A DNA stretch of 64,000 nucleotides from positions 5,152,001 to 5,216,000 of the forward strand of contig OZ245006.1 of assembly GCA_965223545.1 (NCBI GenBank), given 5' to 3'. The notes under the pieces were generated by a model. The model ran no database searches. It was not told the DNA's origin and saw nothing but the letters and a program-made list of their open reading frames with translations. Position 1 is the stretch's first letter. Every line of letters begins with the position of its first letter. Source of the DNA: Planctomycetota bacterium (GTDB lineage: Bacteria > Planctomycetota > UBA1135 > UBA2386). This document shows positions 10,143 through 31,301 of this stretch, piece after piece. Position numbers and translations under genes: made by a program.

Positions 10143-10181
10143 CGGGGGCCGCGATTGATGAATCGGAGCCTGACCTGAAAC

Positions 10182-11564
10182 TCACCCAGCCTCGGCGATC
10201 GGTATGAGCTTGTACCCGAGGGATTTAGCGTTCTGTCGGAGTCCGACGATGCGTCGCTGGGTGAAGCGCTCCTCGTAGGCCTTGGCGCCTTCGTCTACGT
10301 AGTCCTGGCCGAACTTCAGCATGCGGTAGATGAGCAGGGCCAGTTTGCGGGCGATGGCAAAGATGGCGACGTTGCCGTCCTTCGCGCGGGCGATCTTGCG
10401 GAAGTGTGCGCCGAGAGCTGTCTGAGTACGTTGGAGGGACAGGGCGGCCATCCGGAGGACCGTGGCGATCCTGCTGACCGCGATGTTGTTGCGGTGCTTC
10501 TTGATGCGCTTTCCACCCGAGACGGCTTGACGTGGGCACAGGCGTAGCCAGGAGACGAAGTGCTTCTCGGTCGGGAAAGCTTCGAGGTCGTAGCCGACCT
10601 CGGTGAGCACGATCATGGCCGTGCTCGGGCTGATACCGTCGATTCGCGTGAGATCACACCCGACGAGCCGGCAGAGGGCATCGCGAAGCTCCCGGCCGCC
10701 CTTCGTTCGGATGCTCCTCTCCTTGCGGGGGTCTGGATGCTCGGGGACGTCGGCCGTCTTGGCTTCCTCCGGTTGCAGGTCCTCGATCATCGCCATCAAT
10801 CGCTTCTCGACCGACTCGATCTCGTGGTCGGTGTGCTCGAGCATCCGCAAGCCCGAAGCGAGAGTGAAGATGTGCTCCTCGATCCAGGTCCCTTGCAAGT
10901 GATCCGCGAGCTCCTTCTCGGAGATCTTGCAGCGCGGATCACGCAGTCTGGCGAGCGCTCGAGGGTCGCGTTCACCAGCGAGAATCGCGCGGATGATCGC
11001 GAGGCCGGTCTTGCCGGTGATGTCCGTTACCGCGCGATGGATCGCCACGTTCATCTGATCCAGTGACCGCTGCATCAACTGCGTGTGGCGCGTGCGCTGC
11101 GCGATCAAAGACGCGGCATGGCGTTGCAGGGTCCGCAACGCACAGATGTCCTTCGGAGGCCGGAACGAAGCGCGAATGAGGCCATAGGTGTGTAGCTTCT
11201 GCAGCCAACTGCAATCGCTGGCATCGGACTTGGAGCGGCCCGGCACGTTCTTCACCTCGCGGGCATTCGCGAGGATGACCTCGAAGCCTCTCGACTCGAG
11301 TAGCTCGTAGACGGGAATCCAGTAGACATAGGTGCTCTCCATCGCGACGGATCGCACTCCGAGCTCCTCCAGCCAGTCCGCGAGCGCCTCTAGCTGGGGC
11401 GTCGTCGTTCCGAATCGCTTGATCGGACGACTGCCGTCGGGTGCTGCTGCGCACACCCAGTGCTCGCGGCTGCCGATGTCGATTCCGGCGGCGTTGGGCT
11501 TCACGACTGGCAATACTTCCGCTGCGGGCTTCTTGCCCTTCCTCGTTCTGCTCTTCCCAGCCAT
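10182..11564 (-). CDS. IS110-family DEDD recombinase/transposase (460 aa)
   Basis: RuvC-like GIDIG, MEST, KSDASD; Tnp domain IDGIS and QAVSGG (catalytic Ser); AIARKL. Confidence 0.95.
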   Translation of the reverse strand: MAGKSRTRKGKKPAAEVLPVVKPNAAGIDIGSREHWVCAAAPDGSRPIKRFGTTTPQLEALADWLEELGVRSVAMESTYVYWIPVYELLESRGFEVILANAREVKNVPGRSKSDASDCSWLQKLHTYGLIRASFRPPKDICALRTLQRHAASLIAQRTRHTQLMQRSLDQMNVAIHRAVTDITGKTGLAIIRAILAGERDPRALARLRDPRCKISEKELADHLQGTWIEEHIFTLASGLRMLEHTDHEIESVEKRLMAMIEDLQPEEAKTADVPEHPDPRKERSIRTKGGRELRDALCRLVGCDLTRIDGISPSTAMIVLTEVGYDLEAFPTEKHFVSWLRLCPRQAVSGGKRIKKHRNNIAVSRIATVLRMAALSLQRTQTALGAHFRKIARAKDGNVAIFAIARKLALLIYRMLKFGQDYVDEGAKAYEERFTQRRIVGLRQNAKSLGYKLIPIAEAG

Positions 11565-11814
11565 ACTTCATCCTCATTGTTGTGGTGGGCCCGGCCCGAG
11601 GCGGCGATCAAACGAATCTGACCTGCGGGAGTGGGCACGGCGACGTGCCCCTCACCAGTGAAGGATGGCCAACTCGGACCCAGACTGGCTCTGGGGCAAA
11701 CGTGCTCCAGTGGCTATTGGGGGCGTAGCTGCCGGGCCCCTCACACGTTCCCCTCCCCCTTCCTCAGCGGCTAGTTTCCTGCCCTGAAGGGCCGACAAAT
11801 CTGCCGGGGCAGGA
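11565..11814 (-). ncRNA. Putative bridge RNA region in the IS110 non-coding left end (copy 1)
   Basis: Same sequence as 27647-27896; transcript ends unknown. Confidence 0.6.
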
Positions 11815-11828
11815 CTGGCTCCGTACTT

Positions 11829-25076: not shown

Positions 25077-25874
25077 ATGCGCTTGATCTCCGTTGTCCTG
25101 TTGGCAGCTTCCGCGCCCTGCTTCGTTCTCTCGGAGCCGCGCCGCGAGCAGAGCGCCGTCGCGGTCCTTGGCACGTTTCACATGGCCAACCCCGGCCGTG
25201 ACGTGGTCAACGCAAACGTCGACGACGTGCTCTCCGAGGATCGTCAGCAGCAGCTCCAGGAGCTGTGTGACCTCTTGGCTGCCTTCGAACCGACGCACAT
25301 CGCGGTCGAGGCCGTGCCGGACCGCGCCGACGAGTTGGCGCGGCGCTACGCGGAGTACCGCGCCGGCACGCTGGAGCCCGATCGCAACGAGATCGTGCAG
25401 GTCGCGTTCCGCCTCGCGGACGCACTCGGGCACGAGCGCGTTTGGCCCGTGGACCATCGGCAGGACATGGCGATTGGCTCGGTGATGCAGTACGCGCAGC
25501 AGAACGACCCCGCCGCCGCCGCGCTGCTGGGCGAGTGGCGCGGGAAGATGCAGGCCACGCTGGACGAGGTCATGGCCAAACCGATCGTCGACATCTTCCG
25601 CTGGGCGAACCACCCCGACCGCGCCGCGGAGCACGACGCCGTCTACCTTCGCATGGCGCAGATCGGCGGTGGAGACACAATGGTCGGAGCGCAGGCGGTC
25701 GGCACATGGTACGCGCGCAACCTCGCGATCTTCGCGAACGTCGCCGCACTGGCCAGCGATCCTGACGCGCGGGTGCTGGTCCTGATCGGCGCCGGACACG
25801 CCCCTCTCCTCTGCGACTTCGTCCGCGGCGCGGACAACCTCGACCTGATCGACATCACCGAAGTCCTGAAGTGA
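25077..25874 (+). CDS. DUF5694-like secreted protein
   Basis: VLGTFHMANPGRD; NEIVQVAFRLA; WYARNLAIFAN; VLIGAGH. Confidence 0.8.
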   Translation: MRLISVVLLAASAPCFVLSEPRREQSAVAVLGTFHMANPGRDVVNANVDDVLSEDRQQQLQELCDLLAAFEPTHIAVEAVPDRADELARRYAEYRAGTLEPDRNEIVQVAFRLADALGHERVWPVDHRQDMAIGSVMQYAQQNDPAAAALLGEWRGKMQATLDEVMAKPIVDIFRWANHPDRAAEHDAVYLRMAQIGGGDTMVGAQAVGTWYARNLAIFANVAALASDPDARVLVLIGAGHAPLLCDFVRGADNLDLIDITEVLK

Positions 25875-25902
25875 CGGTACGGAGTCAGGCTCCGTACCGT
25901 CA
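25871..25902. repeat. Empty REP-like palindrome (IS110 target family)
   Basis: GTGACGGTACGGAGT-CAG-GCTCCGTACCGTCA; differs by one base from the reconstructed target of IS110 copy 2. Confidence 0.85.
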
Positions 25903-25921
25903 GGCTCGGTACGGAGATCCG

Positions 25922-27697
25922 ATGGCACATGGCTTCGTTCGCTCGCTCGTCCCAGCCCTGGTCTTGATACCGGCACTGGCCGCAGCCACCCAAGACCGGT
26001 CGCAGCGGGCAGCCGAGGAACGTGCGCTGATCGAGGGGGCAGTGGGCGATCCGCTGTCGCAGCGCGCGGCCGAGGCGTTCAACAAGCGCGACTGGCAGGA
26101 GGCCGAGCGAGCCTACGCCGCGCTCGTCGAGCGGGACCCGGCCGACGAGCGCGCTTGGTTGCGGCTCGGAACGGCACTGCACGCGCAGCAGAAGCTGGAC
26201 GCGGCGCTGCGGGCGTACGAGCACGCACTGGACTTCCCCAGCGCTGCCTACAACGCCGCTTGCATCCATGCGCTGCGCGGCGCTACGGACTTGGCACTCG
26301 ACCGGCTCCGCTCCGCGGTTGAAGTTGGGTTCCTCGATTTCGAGCACGCGCGGCGCGACCCGGATCTGTCGAACCTGCACGAAGACCCGGCCTTCGCGGC
26401 CGTGCTCGCGGCGATGGAGCGGCGGATGAAGACGCCGCTGCCCGAGGCGGTCCTCGGTCAGGCCGCGCCCGACTTCGAGCTCACCGACGTCGACGGCCGA
26501 CGCCATCGGCTCGAGTCGTACCGTGGGCGAATCGTCGTCCTCGAATGGACGAGCCACACGTGCCCGACGGTTGCACGCTACCACGAGTCGGCGAGACTGC
26601 CGGCGTCGGTCGCCGGTGTGACCGGCGATGACCTCGTGTGGCTCGCCATCGACTCCGGCGCAGAATGTGACGAGTGGGTCGACGCGATCCGAGAGTGGCG
26701 CTCGACGGTCGGCCACCGCCGCCCCTACCTGCTGGACCCATCGGGCGCGACGGGTCACCGCTACGGAGCGCAGGCGACACCTCAGATTTTCGTGATCGAC
26801 GGTTCCGGAGTGCTGCGCTACTCGGGGACTGTCGACGACGAAGGCGCGACCATCGACTACGTCGCCGCGACGGTCGCGGCGTTGCGCGAGGGTCGCGACC
26901 CGGCACCGACTTCCACCGAGCTCCGTGGCTGCACGATCAAGTACGCATCGGTGCTGCCAGGATTCGTCGCTGCCGACGTGTGGCAGTGCCCGCCCTGCGG
27001 CCTGCCGTGCGATCGCATCGTGTTCGCGACGCCGGGCCGCTGCCCGCAGTGTCGCATGGTCCTGGCCGCTCGAGTGCGGCGCAACGTGCAGACCGCGGCG
27101 AAGCCACACGCACAGCCGTTGTTCGACGCGGCCCGGATCGCCGCAAGAGCGGGTGAAGCGCAGCCGTGTCTCGCGAGCTTGCGTGCCGCGTTGGTCGCCG
27201 GCTTCGCGACACCCTCCAGGGTTCTGAGCGACGACGCGTTCGCCCCGCTGCTCGCCGTGCCCGAACCGCGCGCGGCGCTCCGCGAGCTGTTGGCCGAGTT
27301 CGCGAGCGAGTCGACGGCGACCATTGTCCGCAGCACGGAGCCCGGCAATCGCCTGCGGCTCGAGCTCACGATTCATGAAGCGGCGGGTACGCCCGTCGTC
27401 GACGCGCGCGTGGACCTGTACCAGACCGACGCTGCGGGCATCTACGATCCGGTGCACGGTTCGGAGAACCCACGTCTGTTCGCCAGCCTCGTTAGCGATC
27501 GCGACGGCCGCCTGGTCATCGACACGATCGTGCCCGCGGGCTACCCGGACGCGGACGTCTCCCCGCACGTTCACTACGTCGTCGAGACTGCCGGCGGGAC
27601 ACGCGACAGCGGCGAGATCGTGAGGAGAGTGACGGTACGGAGCCAGTCCTGCCCCGGCAGATTTGTCGGCCCTTCAGGGCAGGAAACTAGCCGCTGA
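25922..27697 (+). CDS. Multidomain secreted protein: TPR + AhpC/TSA redoxin + Cys-rich metal-binding + intradiol-dioxygenase-like; C-terminus runs into IS110
   Basis: AAYNAACIHA (TPR); APDFELTD...EWTSHTCP...GCTIKY; CPPCGLPCD..CPQC; YQTDAAGIY...PHVHY; the stop codon lies inside the IS. Confidence 0.75.
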   Translation: MAHGFVRSLVPALVLIPALAAATQDRSQRAAEERALIEGAVGDPLSQRAAEAFNKRDWQEAERAYAALVERDPADERAWLRLGTALHAQQKLDAALRAYEHALDFPSAAYNAACIHALRGATDLALDRLRSAVEVGFLDFEHARRDPDLSNLHEDPAFAAVLAAMERRMKTPLPEAVLGQAAPDFELTDVDGRRHRLESYRGRIVVLEWTSHTCPTVARYHESARLPASVAGVTGDDLVWLAIDSGAECDEWVDAIREWRSTVGHRRPYLLDPSGATGHRYGAQATPQIFVIDGSGVLRYSGTVDDEGATIDYVAATVAALREGRDPAPTSTELRGCTIKYASVLPGFVAADVWQCPPCGLPCDRIVFATPGRCPQCRMVLAARVRRNVQTAAKPHAQPLFDAARIAARAGEAQPCLASLRAALVAGFATPSRVLSDDAFAPLLAVPEPRAALRELLAEFASESTATIVRSTEPGNRLRLELTIHEAAGTPVVDARVDLYQTDAAGIYDPVHGSENPRLFASLVSDRDGRLVIDTIVPAGYPDADVSPHVHYVVETAGGTRDSGEIVRRVTVRSQSCPGRFVGPSGQETSR

Positions 27698-27896
27698 GGA
27701 AGGGGGAGGGGAACGTGTGAGGGGCCCGGCAGCTACGCCCCCAATAGCCACTGGAGCACGTTTGCCCCAGAGCCAGTCTGGGTCCGAGTTGGCCATCCTT
27801 CACTGGTGAGGGGCACGTCGCCGTGCCCACTCCCGCAGGTCAGATTCGTTTGATCGCCGCCTCGGGCCGGGCCCACCACAACAATGAGGATGAAGT
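27647..27896 (+). ncRNA. Putative bridge RNA region in the IS110 non-coding left end (copy 2)
   Basis: 250-bp non-coding end with hairpins (CCTGCCC..GGGCAGG; GGGCACG-TCGC-CGTGCCC) and guide-like GAGCCAG (27770-27776) and CAGGTCAG (27836-27843). Confidence 0.65.
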
Positions 27897-29279
27897 ATGG
27901 CTGGGAAGAGCAGAACGAGGAAGGGCAAGAAGCCCGCAGCGGAAGTATTGCCAGTCGTGAAGCCCAACGCCGCCGGAATCGACATCGGCAGCCGCGAGCA
28001 CTGGGTGTGCGCAGCAGCACCCGACGGCAGTCGTCCGATCAAGCGATTCGGAACGACGACGCCCCAGCTAGAGGCGCTCGCGGACTGGCTGGAGGAGCTC
28101 GGAGTGCGATCCGTCGCGATGGAGAGCACCTATGTCTACTGGATTCCCGTCTACGAGCTACTCGAGTCGAGAGGCTTCGAGGTCATCCTCGCGAATGCCC
28201 GCGAGGTGAAGAACGTGCCGGGCCGCTCCAAGTCCGATGCCAGCGATTGCAGTTGGCTGCAGAAGCTACACACCTATGGCCTCATTCGCGCTTCGTTCCG
28301 GCCTCCGAAGGACATCTGTGCGTTGCGGACCCTGCAACGCCATGCCGCGTCTTTGATCGCGCAGCGCACGCGCCACACGCAGTTGATGCAGCGGTCACTG
28401 GATCAGATGAACGTGGCGATCCATCGCGCGGTAACGGACATCACCGGCAAGACCGGCCTCGCGATCATCCGCGCGATTCTCGCTGGTGAACGCGACCCTC
28501 GAGCGCTCGCCAGACTGCGTGATCCGCGCTGCAAGATCTCCGAGAAGGAGCTCGCGGATCACTTGCAAGGGACCTGGATCGAGGAGCACATCTTCACTCT
28601 CGCTTCGGGCTTGCGGATGCTCGAGCACACCGACCACGAGATCGAGTCGGTCGAGAAGCGATTGATGGCGATGATCGAGGACCTGCAACCGGAGGAAGCC
28701 AAGACGGCCGACGTCCCCGAGCATCCAGACCCCCGCAAGGAGAGGAGCATCCGAACGAAGGGCGGCCGGGAGCTTCGCGATGCCCTCTGCCGGCTCGTCG
28801 GGTGTGATCTCACGCGAATCGACGGTATCAGCCCGAGCACGGCCATGATCGTGCTCACCGAGGTCGGCTACGACCTCGAAGCTTTCCCGACCGAGAAGCA
28901 CTTCGTCTCCTGGCTACGCCTGTGCCCACGTCAAGCCGTCTCGGGTGGAAAGCGCATCAAGAAGCACCGCAACAACATCGCGGTCAGCAGGATCGCCACG
29001 GTCCTCCGGATGGCCGCCCTGTCCCTCCAACGTACTCAGACAGCTCTCGGCGCACACTTCCGCAAGATCGCCCGCGCGAAGGACGGCAACGTCGCCATCT
29101 TTGCCATCGCCCGCAAACTGGCCCTGCTCATCTACCGCATGCTGAAGTTCGGCCAGGACTACGTAGACGAAGGCGCCAAGGCCTACGAGGAGCGCTTCAC
29201 CCAGCGACGCATCGTCGGACTCCGACAGAACGCTAAATCCCTCGGGTACAAGCTCATACCGATCGCCGAGGCTGGGTGA
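27897..29279 (+). CDS. IS110-family DEDD recombinase/transposase (460 aa)
   Basis: Protein identical to that of 10182..11564. Confidence 0.95.
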   Translation: MAGKSRTRKGKKPAAEVLPVVKPNAAGIDIGSREHWVCAAAPDGSRPIKRFGTTTPQLEALADWLEELGVRSVAMESTYVYWIPVYELLESRGFEVILANAREVKNVPGRSKSDASDCSWLQKLHTYGLIRASFRPPKDICALRTLQRHAASLIAQRTRHTQLMQRSLDQMNVAIHRAVTDITGKTGLAIIRAILAGERDPRALARLRDPRCKISEKELADHLQGTWIEEHIFTLASGLRMLEHTDHEIESVEKRLMAMIEDLQPEEAKTADVPEHPDPRKERSIRTKGGRELRDALCRLVGCDLTRIDGISPSTAMIVLTEVGYDLEAFPTEKHFVSWLRLCPRQAVSGGKRIKKHRNNIAVSRIATVLRMAALSLQRTQTALGAHFRKIARAKDGNVAIFAIARKLALLIYRMLKFGQDYVDEGAKAYEERFTQRRIVGLRQNAKSLGYKLIPIAEAG

Positions 29280-29312
29280 GTTTCAGGTCAGGCTCCGTAC
29301 CGTCACCCCTAC

Positions 29313-31301
29313 CCCAACTTCCGCAGTTCGACGGGTCGTCACGTTGAAAAGCAACGACTTACGTCGATTGGTTGGCACTACATCGCGGTCGAACGGAGTG
29401 GCGCGGGGACGGATAGCCTCCTGGGTAGCTGGATGCCGAGCCGGTCGAGCAGGTGCGCCTGCGCCTCGTTGGGGGTGACCACGCAGCGGACCCGGAGTTC
29501 GCGGCCGTCAGTAGTTGGCAGGAGCACGTCTGCGCTTTGGACCTGACGGAGCTCCTCGAGGATGGCGGCCGGGCTGTTGCCGAGTCCGGCCTTCTCCTGC
29601 CAGAGCTCGAGCGTTTTCCACAAGGCGTAGGCGAGGAAGCAGACGAGGATGTGCGCCCTGACCCGGTCCTCGCGTTGATGCCACACCGGGCGGATCGACA
29701 GCTCGGACTTCTGGATCCGAAACGCGGACTCAGCATCAGTGAGCTGGATGTACGTCCGCCAAAGCTCCTCATCTGTCCAACCCGTCACGTTGGACCTGAG
29801 CAGGTAGCACCCGGCGCTCTGGTCCACCCAGTTCGTGTTCTCACAAGCCTCCACGGCAAGCCCCGATGGTCGATCCGGGGCTTCGATCAACGAAACCGAG
29901 AAGCACGTGGAGGCCCGCGAGTTCTGGGCCAAGATGCGTCCGATCTGTTGATTGACGCGGTCCCGTTCGATCGACTTCTTCGACGCCGCCAGTCGGCGTT
30001 CGAGCGACGCAAGCCTCGCGCGAATGCGTTCGGCTGCTCGCGCGACAATTGCGGCGTCCTTCTCGATGCGCGCCTGGGAGCGACACAGGATGAACGTCTC
30101 CTCCCCGTCCTCGCTCGGGCAGAGCTTGACCTCGACATCCTCACGAATGCTGCGCCAGTCTCGACGGTCGACGATCTCCTGTTCGAAGCGGCGCAGGTCC
30201 GAACGCGATGCGCCGATGACGTACCGTCGCCTTCCCTCCTTCAACCATTTCAGGTTGCGCTTGCTCACCATTCCGCGGTCCATGACCCAGATGCGATCAG
30301 CAGCACCGAATCGCCGCTCCATCGTCTCGACGATCTCGCGGACCGTCGTGACGTCAGTCCGATTGCCGTCGAACACTTCGTGCGCAAGAGGGATTCCCTG
30401 TCTGGTCACGACCAGAGCGATGCAAACCTGTTTGCAGTCAGGCCGGTGATCTCGGCTGTAGCCACGCTGCGCCTGGGGGTTGCCCAGCATGAGGCCTTCG
30501 AAGTAGGTCGAGGTCACGTCGTAGAGCAGCAAGTCGTACTGAACGTCGAACAACTCGCCGAGCCGTGCGCGGAGATGCTGCTCCAGCGCCTCTTTGTGCG
30601 GCAGGATCTGGTCGAGAGCCCGGTAGAGCCGGTCGTCGTTGACCTTGCCTTCCGGCAGGCCAAGCAGGTCGTCAAGCGCGGTCTGGCGGTACAGGACTTC
30701 AGCCAGGTGCAGCTCGCTGGAGGGCATGCACAACCGACAGATGACCATCGCTGCCGCCATCGTCGACCACGGGACATCTTCACGGCCCCGCGGCATGAGC
30801 TCCCAGAGTGCGTCGTCGAACTTCAGTGCGTGCCACAGCGCCAGGCCGACGAAAACGTCGCCGAAGCGGCGTGTCCGGTCGAGGCTGACCTCCTTCAAGC
30901 GAATCGACTCGACCGGGTCGTCGTCTGTCACCGGTGGCTCAAACAGGCTCGGGTGCATTCGGCGACCGGTCATCCGATCTGCCAGCGCACGAGCCCGGCG
31001 TCGCCCCTTCGCATCCAGTTTGCCCAGCTGCGCGATCACCTCCTGCCGCACTCGACGACCGTGCCGCACCGACCGAACGAGGAGCCAGTACTCGTGGGTC
31101 TTGCCGTTCTTTCTGACCGTCTTGCGTCGCAGGTACACGTCCGCCGCCTCGCACACAGTTGTCGTGCTCCCTGCCACACCGATCAACGGGGCGGGTTGGC
31201 ACTACACGGCCGATCTGCGCCGCCGCGACGGTGGATAGCGGGCTGGCGCCGCGCCGAGGCTCCGAATTGGCCTCAAAAATCGTCGAGCTGCGGAAGTTGG
31301 G
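29313..31301 (-). mobile_element. IS1634-family insertion sequence (1989 bp)
   Basis: 21-bp TIRs CCCAACTTCCGCAG(T/C)TCGACG with one mismatch; CTAC direct repeat at 29309-29312 and 31302-31305. Confidence 0.9.
29378..31138 (-). CDS. IS1634-family DDE transposase
   Basis: YDVTSTYFEG; GYSRDHRPDCKQ; VMDRG; ESAFRIQKSEL.IRPVWHQ; GTG start (YLRRK) assumed. Confidence 0.92.
   Translation of the reverse strand: MYLRRKTVRKNGKTHEYWLLVRSVRHGRRVRQEVIAQLGKLDAKGRRRARALADRMTGRRMHPSLFEPPVTDDDPVESIRLKEVSLDRTRRFGDVFVGLALWHALKFDDALWELMPRGREDVPWSTMAAAMVICRLCMPSSELHLAEVLYRQTALDDLLGLPEGKVNDDRLYRALDQILPHKEALEQHLRARLGELFDVQYDLLLYDVTSTYFEGLMLGNPQAQRGYSRDHRPDCKQVCIALVVTRQGIPLAHEVFDGNRTDVTTVREIVETMERRFGAADRIWVMDRGMVSKRNLKWLKEGRRRYVIGASRSDLRRFEQEIVDRRDWRSIREDVEVKLCPSEDGEETFILCRSQARIEKDAAIVARAAERIRARLASLERRLAASKKSIERDRVNQQIGRILAQNSRASTCFSVSLIEAPDRPSGLAVEACENTNWVDQSAGCYLLRSNVTGWTDEELWRTYIQLTDAESAFRIQKSELSIRPVWHQREDRVRAHILVCFLAYALWKTLELWQEKAGLGNSPAAILEELRQVQSADVLLPTTDGRELRVRCVVTPNEAQAHLLDRLGIQLPRRLSVPAPLRSTAM

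Follow-up and report, generated by a model that had tools for sequence, protein, structure and literature searches.

An IS110-family element of a Planctomycetota bacterium with a probable left-end bridge RNA of variant guide layout

Does the long non-coding left end of an insertion sequence (IS) encode an RNA that selects both the site into which the element inserts and the element end that is joined to it? The question is raised by an IS110-family element at positions 27644-29291 of a 64,000-nt window (the whole stretch of DNA analysed here) from a Planctomycetota bacterium (GCA_965223545.1, contig OZ245006.1, positions 5,152,001-5,216,000, forward strand), the host genome of which has 2 contigs totalling 8.1 Mb. 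No natural guides other than bridge and seek RNAs are known to set both recombination partners, and the design of bridge-RNA tools is modelled on the layout of IS621. A sequence-only reading of the window had proposed that the left end of the element carries target-matching and donor-matching guide segments in the order expected from IS621. Our analysis indicates that the locus is very probably an intact, recently active IS110 element with a left-end bridge RNA, and that the layout of the guides is a variant one.

The element is intact and comprises a 250-nt left end, a gene for a 460-aa DEDD transposase, and a 12-nt right end (Table 1). The left junction (27630-27653) reads ...GTGACGGTACGGAGC-CAG-TCCTGCC..., and the right junction (29280-29306) reads ...GTTTCAGGT-CAG-GCTCCGTACCGTCAC. 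The open reading frame (ORF) of the element spans 27897-29279, and the right end therefore extends 12 nt past the stop codon, as the sequence-only reading had estimated. Two identical copies had been counted in that reading; the second is indeed present in the window on the opposite strand, and the genome total is 23 full copies, of which 12 are 100% identical across 1648 bp and the rest 99.4-99.9% identical. The 460-aa ORF is uninterrupted in all 23 copies, which together encode 6 distinct proteins. Only 12 positions vary among the copies; the 5′ hairpin (at 27657) is the only supported stem touched, and no guide is touched. A sub-lineage of six of the 23 copies is marked by an additional T at 27661, in the loop of the 5′ hairpin, and by seven linked substitutions, and the same insertion is also present, as a minority form, in contigs of three public runs. 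Contigs from public runs end at the element edges, and the depth of internal unitigs is ~9-16 times that of the unique flank.

All 23 copies are inserted at the CAG centre of a palindrome resembling repetitive extragenic palindromic (REP) sequences, ...GGAGC-CAG-GCTCC, always in one orientation. Both flanks match around CAG, so that removal of the element gives back a perfect palindrome of 15+3+15 nt. The left flank GTACGGAGC directly precedes CAG in 21 of the 23 copies, and 85 unoccupied GGAGCCAGGCTCC sites are present in the genome. The REP-like family, TGAAnGTACGGAGC-CAG-GCTCC(G/C)nTTCATCAC (27615-27646 and 29292-29306 in the window), comprises these 85 empty sites and the 23 occupied ones, which are often paired or clustered. 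The CAG core first proposed for the element holds at both of its junctions, but not across its homologues: the core common to both junctions in all homologues is AG only, preceded by C, T, A, or G, and the C of CAG is specific to the studied element.

The transposase has the domains and the catalytic residues of the IS110 family. In particular, Pfam identifies DEDD_Tnp_IS110 (PF01548) at residues 26-171 (E 1.3e-26) and Transposase_20 (PF02371) at residues 305-383 (E 4.7e-14), and the NCBIfam model NF033542, "IS110 family RNA-guided transposase", is matched at 247.9 bits, the cutoff being 140. The protein is alignable to the solved IS621 recombinase (chain 8wt6_A, E 2.3e-10) and to ISCro4. Specifically, D29, E76, D114, and D117 align with the GID, IEAT, and KTDxxD motifs of IS621 and are invariant in 61-62 of 62 distinct homologues, while S349, which we equate with IS621 "S241" by assuming a numbering offset of 2 residues, faces the serine of the IS621 ESG motif and is Ser in 54 and Thr in 8 of the 62. 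With these domains and residues, and with orientation-specific insertion at a short shared core that leaves no longer target duplication, the element is a member of the IS110 family. The 460-aa length, singled out at first as a peculiarity, is typical of a very large clade: the 62 homologues have 432-492 aa, and in a search of 5.8 billion protein clusters 7951 of the 8000 candidates scored have E ≤ 1e-30, with the 120 that are listed spanning 443-493 aa.

To define the RNA, we used related loci with 33-83% protein identity, 75 from species genomes and 80 from metagenomes. Alignment of 11 left ends revealed a conserved scaffold with short variable blocks, which RNAalifold folds into a three-way junction, and a covariance model was built from this fold. 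The model matched 42 and then 77 left ends, all on the strand of the transposase and either 5′ of the gene or directly behind a preceding copy. In the 77-row alignment, 93.3% of paired cells form a pair, as compared to 73.3% after shuffling and at most 48% with partners slid by one to three columns, and 35 of the 42 pairs of the RNA model show compensatory changes. Many of the pairs are G-U (for example, 29 at the first P2 pair), and these are compatible with the + strand only. The left end thus appears to encode a conserved structured RNA with a target loop and a donor loop, in agreement with the structured left-end RNA that had been proposed.

The two arms of the predicted RNA have a common outline: a 5′ strand ending CA(C/U)U, then a GG-N-stem, and then a 3′ strand with a word ending AG. 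A helix initially predicted in the donor arm, P5 (27792-95/27804-07), was dropped; it has no compensatory change, and its pair 27794:27805 is formed in only 32 of 61 rows. The competing extension of P6 is formed in all 61 rows, and the 5′ strand of the donor loop is therefore unpaired; with P6 extended in place of P5, both arms are internal loops of the same outline. A single-sequence fold of the left end was uninformative (z -1.75) and placed the left-target guide in a local hairpin that homologues lose.

The evidence that carries the assignment of guides is covariation in homologues. GAGCCAG (27770-76) and CAGGTCAG (27836-43) are each present once in the left end, where the sequence-only reading had placed them, and both assignments, as left-target guide and left-donor guide respectively, are borne out: the two words occupy fixed positions in loops of the scaffold and vary in homologues with the left flank and the right end, respectively. 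In the 67 rows that have a flank, the left-target guide matches the left flank at 7 of 7 positions in 46 rows, at 6 in 11, and at 5 or fewer in 10, the poor rows being mostly distant families, in which model position 1 is not at the element boundary, together with L094, L110, and L112. In all, 41 distinct words occur as guides. Permuted position by position, the five bases preceding AG give z of 8.5-9.3 and the next two no signal; the left-target guide therefore consists of five programmable bases plus AG. The nucleotide that follows the guide (U27777 here) equals base 1 of the left end in 83% of cases (z 5.1), resembling the handshake base of IS621, while the second base agrees in 36%.

Several relatives (among L094, L098, L111, L117, L118, and L124) sit directly behind the right end of another family member, and in some of these back-to-back relatives the left-target guide is AGGTCAG, which equals the right end plus core of elements like the studied one. 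By this adjacency and these guides, family members appear to target each other's ends, forming head-to-tail arrays.

The segment that covaries with the right flank lies on the 5′ strand of the target loop. A register test across homologues finds 2.33 of 6 positions complementary, versus 1.40 ± 0.15 after permutation (0 of 5000 as high), while shifting the register by 1 or 2 bases yields p of 0.03 to 0.86. The diagonal on right-flank bases 1-4 has z of 2.3, 3.7, 4.9, and 2.6 and recurs in the 37 elements with both flanks, and 27746 and 27747 are the only RNA columns above z 4.5 for right-flank complementarity. In the studied copy, A27746-G-C stands opposite GCT, C27749 opposite the core G, and A27750 opposite the core A. 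Judged by these comparisons, AGCC (27746-49) is probably the right-target guide of this copy. AGCC stands 5′ of the left-target guide, and we have good confidence that the order of the guides is accordingly swapped relative to IS621, not the expected order claimed at first. We rejected the alternative that the target loop repeats the left flank in the same sense on its 5′ strand: the 37 elements for which both flanks are available gave no such diagonal.

The 3′ strand of the donor loop carries the left-donor guide. In most elements, the longest word common to the right end and the left end of the same element has 8-9 nt and lies 33-82 nt before the start codon. The longest common substring averages 7.9 nt for cognate and 6.7 nt for non-cognate combinations, at a fixed position and with 15 distinct 7-mers, and the words differ by lineage (for example, CAGGTCAG, CACACTAG, TGGAGAGT, TTAGGAGA, TATAGAAG, and CTGGCAGTA). 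In one relative (L018:3859-3900), the right end, GTTTCGGGCAAG, equals the left target plus core of that element and not its left-donor word, AGGGTCAG, as if the right end had been converted to target sequence.

The 5′ strand of the donor loop has a different kind of counterpart. CCUUCA on this strand has a same-sense twin, CCTTCA, at an internal site directly 3′ of the 5′ hairpin. Across homologues, the cognate longest common substring of this twin motif is 6.25 nt, versus 4.21 ± 0.14 nt permuted (0 of 2000 as high), and in other lineages the motif reads, among others, ATCATTCA, ATCGTTCA, CCTATCA, ATGATGCAT, ATAATGCAT, ATTATTCATT, or GTTCGTC. In 25 elements with distinct motifs, no place was consistently occupied by the reverse complement. 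With no consistent complement in the transcript, the simplest partner is the complementary DNA strand of the internal left-end site, and whether the donor loop 5′ strand would pair with DNA at that site is, in our estimation, evenly balanced. A first alternative is that the twin motif serves control at the level of RNA (alternative folds, processing, or antisense RNA) and not recognition of donor DNA. Both copies of the motif come after a stem within the same transcript, we found no IS621 precedent for a same-sense second donor guide, and antisense RNA and leader-based control are described for elements of the type of ISPpu9, an IS110-group element of Pseudomonas putida KT2440 (PMC12288879). 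The missing complement in the 25 elements counts against such control, since it leaves nothing in the transcript for two same-sense RNA copies to compete for, and we consider this alternative possible but rather unlikely.

Close to the internal site is one arm of a subterminal inverted repeat, the other arm of which, AGTTTC, lies 7 nt from the right end. The repeat totals 6-9 bp, and its extension past a 5-nt core is 1.82 nt in cognate pairs, versus 0.82 ± 0.10 nt permuted (0 of 5000). These features invite a tentative reading, which we hold to be doubtful, in which the donor arm would read two sites on one DNA strand, the strand that has CT at the core: the right end plus core, and the internal left-end site ~25 nt inside the terminus, beside the inverted repeat. 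The substrate might, for instance, be a copied-out circle of single-stranded DNA that the inverted repeat and the terminal hairpin fold; the arms of the repeat covary as if base-paired, which would fit a donor recognised as single-stranded DNA. In IS621, by contrast, a duplex junction is read on opposite strands. Single-strand intermediates have been proposed for IS621 and CazIS110-1 (10.64898/2026.08.31.748434; 10.1101/2025.10.25.684509), and the studied element, if this reading were true, would be a natural system built around such intermediates.

The inverted repeat also bears on a second alternative, namely that the element belongs to the IS1111 lineage and not to the IS110 group, with the junction shifted so that the RNA sits upstream of the gene. 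The studied element resembles IS1111-type elements in the order of the target matches, the top-strand match being 5′ of the bottom-strand match (PMC11187229; PMC13604230 Table 1), and in having subterminal inverted repeats, which covary here. In IS1111-type seekRNA elements such as ISEc11 and ISPa11, however, a long right end downstream of the gene holds the RNA (Siddiquee 2024, PMC11187229), whereas the RNA of the studied element is upstream of the gene (27721-27875), and its long RNA-bearing left end and 12-nt right end are the layout of the IS110 group (PMC11208160). The subterminal repeats of the IS1111 group have 7-17 bp, and the repeat here has 6-9 bp with a covarying extension. Its left arm is 36 nt from the end, compared to 5-7 nt in IS1111. 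In addition, none of the 450 plasmid records matched by tblastn carries the name of an IS1111-type element. We regard membership of the IS1111 lineage as unlikely.

A third alternative, very improbable in our judgement, is that the left end is a structured leader that regulates translation of the transposase, that the protein picks the target, and that the flank matches are coincidental or inherited. The long structured 5′ untranslated region of ISPpu9 does inhibit translation (PMC12288879), and, by eye, the GAGGA Shine-Dalgarno region may be a pairing partner of the pyrimidine-rich donor-loop strand. In 200,000 first-order Markov simulations of a 250-nt left end, GAGCCAG occurs in 7.7%, CAGGTCAG in 1.6%, and both in 0.12%, a joint chance of ~0.1% that is not negligible across many windows. 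The guide matches within a single copy are thus suggestive, and the decisive support is the covariation in homologues, in which the 41 distinct guides follow their own left flanks position by position over five bases plus AG while permuted pairs give no signal; covariation of an RNA segment with the target would not arise if the protein read the target.

The IS621-like layout proposed at first, in which GAGCCAG is followed 10 nt downstream by GAGTT (27786-90, a single occurrence in the left end), able to pair with GGCTC through two G-U wobbles, and then by the left-donor guide at a distance from the left-target guide of 66 nt, near the 73 nt of IS621 (PMC11208158), is hardly tenable: GAGTT consists of three bases of the conserved stem P4 and two linker bases, CCGAG (27784-88) is paired with CUCGG (27861-65) in 99% of cells, all 5 pairs show compensatory changes, CCGAG stays unchanged in elements with unrelated right flanks, and right-flank complementarity maps to 27746 and 27747 instead.

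Several observations weigh against a bridge RNA of the form described. Assembled contigs of 4 runs contain no circle junction or excision joint, contigs being prone to drop rare forms. The alignments from which pairs were counted were fitted to the covariance model, which favours the structure of the model. A search of 27300-29600 against Rfam 15 (E up to 10) returned three chance-level matches only and no bridge-RNA family, and a scan of 27550-27950 for sigma-70-like promoters and terminators found none. On the target side, the right guide gives a modest signal across homologues, 2.3 of 6 positions on average, no match is seen in several single-copy elements, and the right-target guide of the studied copy makes 3 non-core pairs and sets A opposite the core A. 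On the donor side, no handshake signal follows the left-donor guide in the homologue covariation test, and none of the modelled RNA columns or segments yielded a guide complementary to the left-end terminus (all |z| ≤ 1.7), so that one of the four guide types of IS621 is missing. The tests for this right-donor guide compared the donor loop 5′ strand, as complement and in the same sense, with left-end bases 1-9; all RNA columns with bases 1-8; five RNA segments by longest common substring; and the 3′ tail of the donor loop by a wobble-tolerant same-sense search. Bases 1-4 of the left end are highly variable, yet the handshake base is the only RNA column with which they covary. Matches found by eye in L013 and L089 were dropped as chance, since the systematic tests gave no signal, and GGGCAGGA (27676-83), a true complement of the terminus TCCTGCCC in the studied element, fails in L013, a relative with 78% identity.

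With these points counted, we hold with high confidence that the studied element is a bridge-RNA element; RNA production, protein binding, and catalysis would follow by analogy with IS621 and ISPpu9. The left end of the element would give rise to the bridge RNA, transcribed in the direction of the gene, and the recombinase would bind it, with one closing stem holding the target arm and the donor arm, each an internal loop with a hairpin cap. GAGCC+AG is identical to the left flank plus core and so can pair with the bottom strand; the left-target guide would thus pair with the bottom strand left of AG, and the short right-target guide, AGC+C, with the top strand right of AG. The opposite orientation would set T at the A of the guide, so the central A/T of the palindrome would fix the orientation of insertion. 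The element end would be read by AGGUC+AG on the 3′ strand of the donor arm, the same word as the right end plus core. The RNA would in this manner tie the target to the element end and position both AG cores so that the DEDD/Ser recombinase can exchange strands, with exchange at AG proceeding as for IS621.

Table 1. Coordinates in the window of the element, its predicted RNA, and its target
Feature	Position	Strand	Remark
Element body, core counted once, at the right end	27647..29291	+	1645 bp; sharp boundaries in 23 full copies
Second, identical copy in the window	10170..11817	-	
Transposase/recombinase gene, 460 aa	27897..29279	+	PF01548 and PF02371; NF033542
Left target + core (GAGCC+AG)	27640..27646	+	same as RNA segment 27770-76; left-junction core copy CAG at 27644-46
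Right target GCTCC	29292..29296	+	22 of 23 copies
Predicted three-way-junction RNA core; P1 (27721-30/27866-75) closes target and donor arms	27721..27875	+	covariance model
5′ hairpin of left end	27655..27668	+	compensatory changes in 5/5 pairs; 90.8% of cells paired
Target-arm stem P2	27737-40 with 27780-83	+	covariance model
Probable right-target guide AGC+C, target loop 5′ strand	27746..27749	+	would pair with top-strand core G + GCT (29291-29294)
Hairpin P3, separating the two target guides	27753..27767	+	100% of cells paired; 3/4 pairs compensatory
Left-target guide GAGCC+AG, target loop 3′ strand, then U27777	27770..27777	+	covariation with left flank
Donor-arm stem P4	27784-88 with 27861-65	+	CCGAG/CUCGG; 99% of cells paired; compensatory changes in 5/5 pairs
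Donor loop 5′ strand, ends CACU like target loop	27789..27804	+	includes CCUUCA 27797-802
Donor-arm hairpin P6	extension 27805-06/27833-34	+	extension paired in 61/61 rows
Left-donor guide (C)AGGUC+AG (CAGGTCAG), donor loop 3′ strand	27836..27843	+	equals right end 29284-29291
Internal left-end site CCTTCA, directly 3′ of 5′ hairpin	27671..27676	+	same-sense twin of CCUUCA 27797-802
Subterminal inverted repeat, left arm GAAACT	27683..27688	+	36 nt inside left end; complementary to 29279-84
Right end: inverted-repeat arm AGTTTC (29279-84), then left donor AGGTC + core AG	29279..29291	+	

Two further loci of the host genome (G000), both outside the window, contain the element or part of it. At C1:4826228-4829693, two copies form a tandem with a spacer of 170 bp; at least the last 60 bp of the spacer duplicate the left flank of the first copy, and the right junction of the first copy reads CAG-CAGACACC and not GCTCC. 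The tandem looks like an IS-cargo-IS duplication generated at a pseudo-site. At C1:988112-988222, a deletion remnant consists of ~110 bp from the 5′ part of the transposase gene joined to the last 18 bp of the right end, without the left end and without the RNA, and adjoins a copy of the terminus of a neighbouring DDE element. The neighbour in question is another insertion sequence, at 29378-31186 (- strand), immediately to the right of the occupied REP; it encodes a 602-aa DDE_Tnp_1 transposase (PF01609, E 1.6e-11), and its terminal sequence is the one seen again beside the remnant at C1:988 kb. Upstream of the element, an ORF at 25871-27697 (+ strand) comprises TPR, redoxin/AhpC, and dioxygenase C-terminal parts; it has no stop before the element, and its frame continues for 17 codons inside it.

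For genome annotation, the analysis accounts for 23 insertions and at least one local duplication within one REP family of the host genome. More broadly, the studied element stands for the very large environmental clade of the 7951 protein clusters noted above. The clade combines an IS110-type RNA position with an IS1111-type order of target guides, an AG core, and short 5+2 guides, and carries a same-strand copy of an internal site in place of a terminus-reading donor guide. If this layout is real, it would widen the design space in two respects, the loop strand that holds the long guide and a minimal right-side pairing, and would offer a natural test of single-strand reading of the donor.

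In comparison with IS621 of E. coli, in which each loop of the RNA has a left guide, a stem-loop, and a right guide and the core is CT (Hiraizumi 2024, PMC11208158; Durrant 2024, PMC11208160), the studied element has the same kind of protein, with DEDD and Tnp domains, a predicted RNA in a long left end 5′ of the gene, and two hairpin-capped internal-loop arms. Further shared points are that the core forms part of the guides, that the left guide repeats the flank together with the core, that a handshake-like base is present, and that the target is a REP. The studied element differs in that within each loop the top-strand guide is 5′ and not, as in IS621, 3′; that the core on the gene strand is AG (CT on the other strand) and not CT; that the guides have 5+2 and 3-4 nt and not 7+2 and 2-5; that the donor loop has on its 5′ strand a copy of an internal left-end site, and that no guide was found for the left-end terminus; and that the protein has 460 and not about 326 aa. 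Reading the DNA on its opposite strand brings the target arm into line with the IS621 rules, down to where the handshake base sits and which sense it has, while in the donor arm only the 3′ strand conforms.

A likeness in description is that to ISPpu9, for which an AG recombination point, a REP target, and a conserved 43-bp left-end "A box" with a short hairpin near the terminus have been shown experimentally, and which has a 16-bp right-end "B box" and a long structured leader said to hold a bridge RNA (PMC12288879). AG crossover at both ends and the REP target are common to both elements, whereas no module like ssr9 was seen in the studied element, and no Pseudomonas locus is among the related loci from species genomes. 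ISPpu10, an IS110 element with a CT core and the pairing logic of IS621, inserts into one REP family, at a target that has a stem-loop, and yields IS-cargo-IS arrays (10.64898/2026.03.19.712850); the REP target is shared, and the arrays are comparable with the tandem of the studied genome, in which a 170-bp spacer is followed by a further copy. A 446-aa IS110-family gene with 43% identity (L168; Citrobacter freundii plasmid NZ_CP098333.1, 71.7-73.1 kb) is found in 61 Citrobacter plasmid records. The covariance model has no match on this element; its right end reads GAGTTTC...AAG and has a matching left-end word, and by eye its right end and donor guide are similar and its target arm different.

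The combination of an upstream RNA, an IS1111-like guide order, and a same-sense internal donor match did not appear in full-text literature searches, within the parts of the sources accessible to them, and may be shown in Extended Data Fig. 10c of PMC11208160 or in Fig. S12 of a preprint survey that describes 86 covariance models over 32,190 bridge RNAs, many of them structurally unlike IS621 (10.64898/2026.10.21.760802). The sequence-only reading, which called the element a new programmable recombinase, identified the right kind of system, a bridge-RNA one, but not a new kind, as such systems have been known since 2024 and NCBIfam already names the family RNA-guided; relative to these known systems, the novelty lies in the variant architecture of a large clade.

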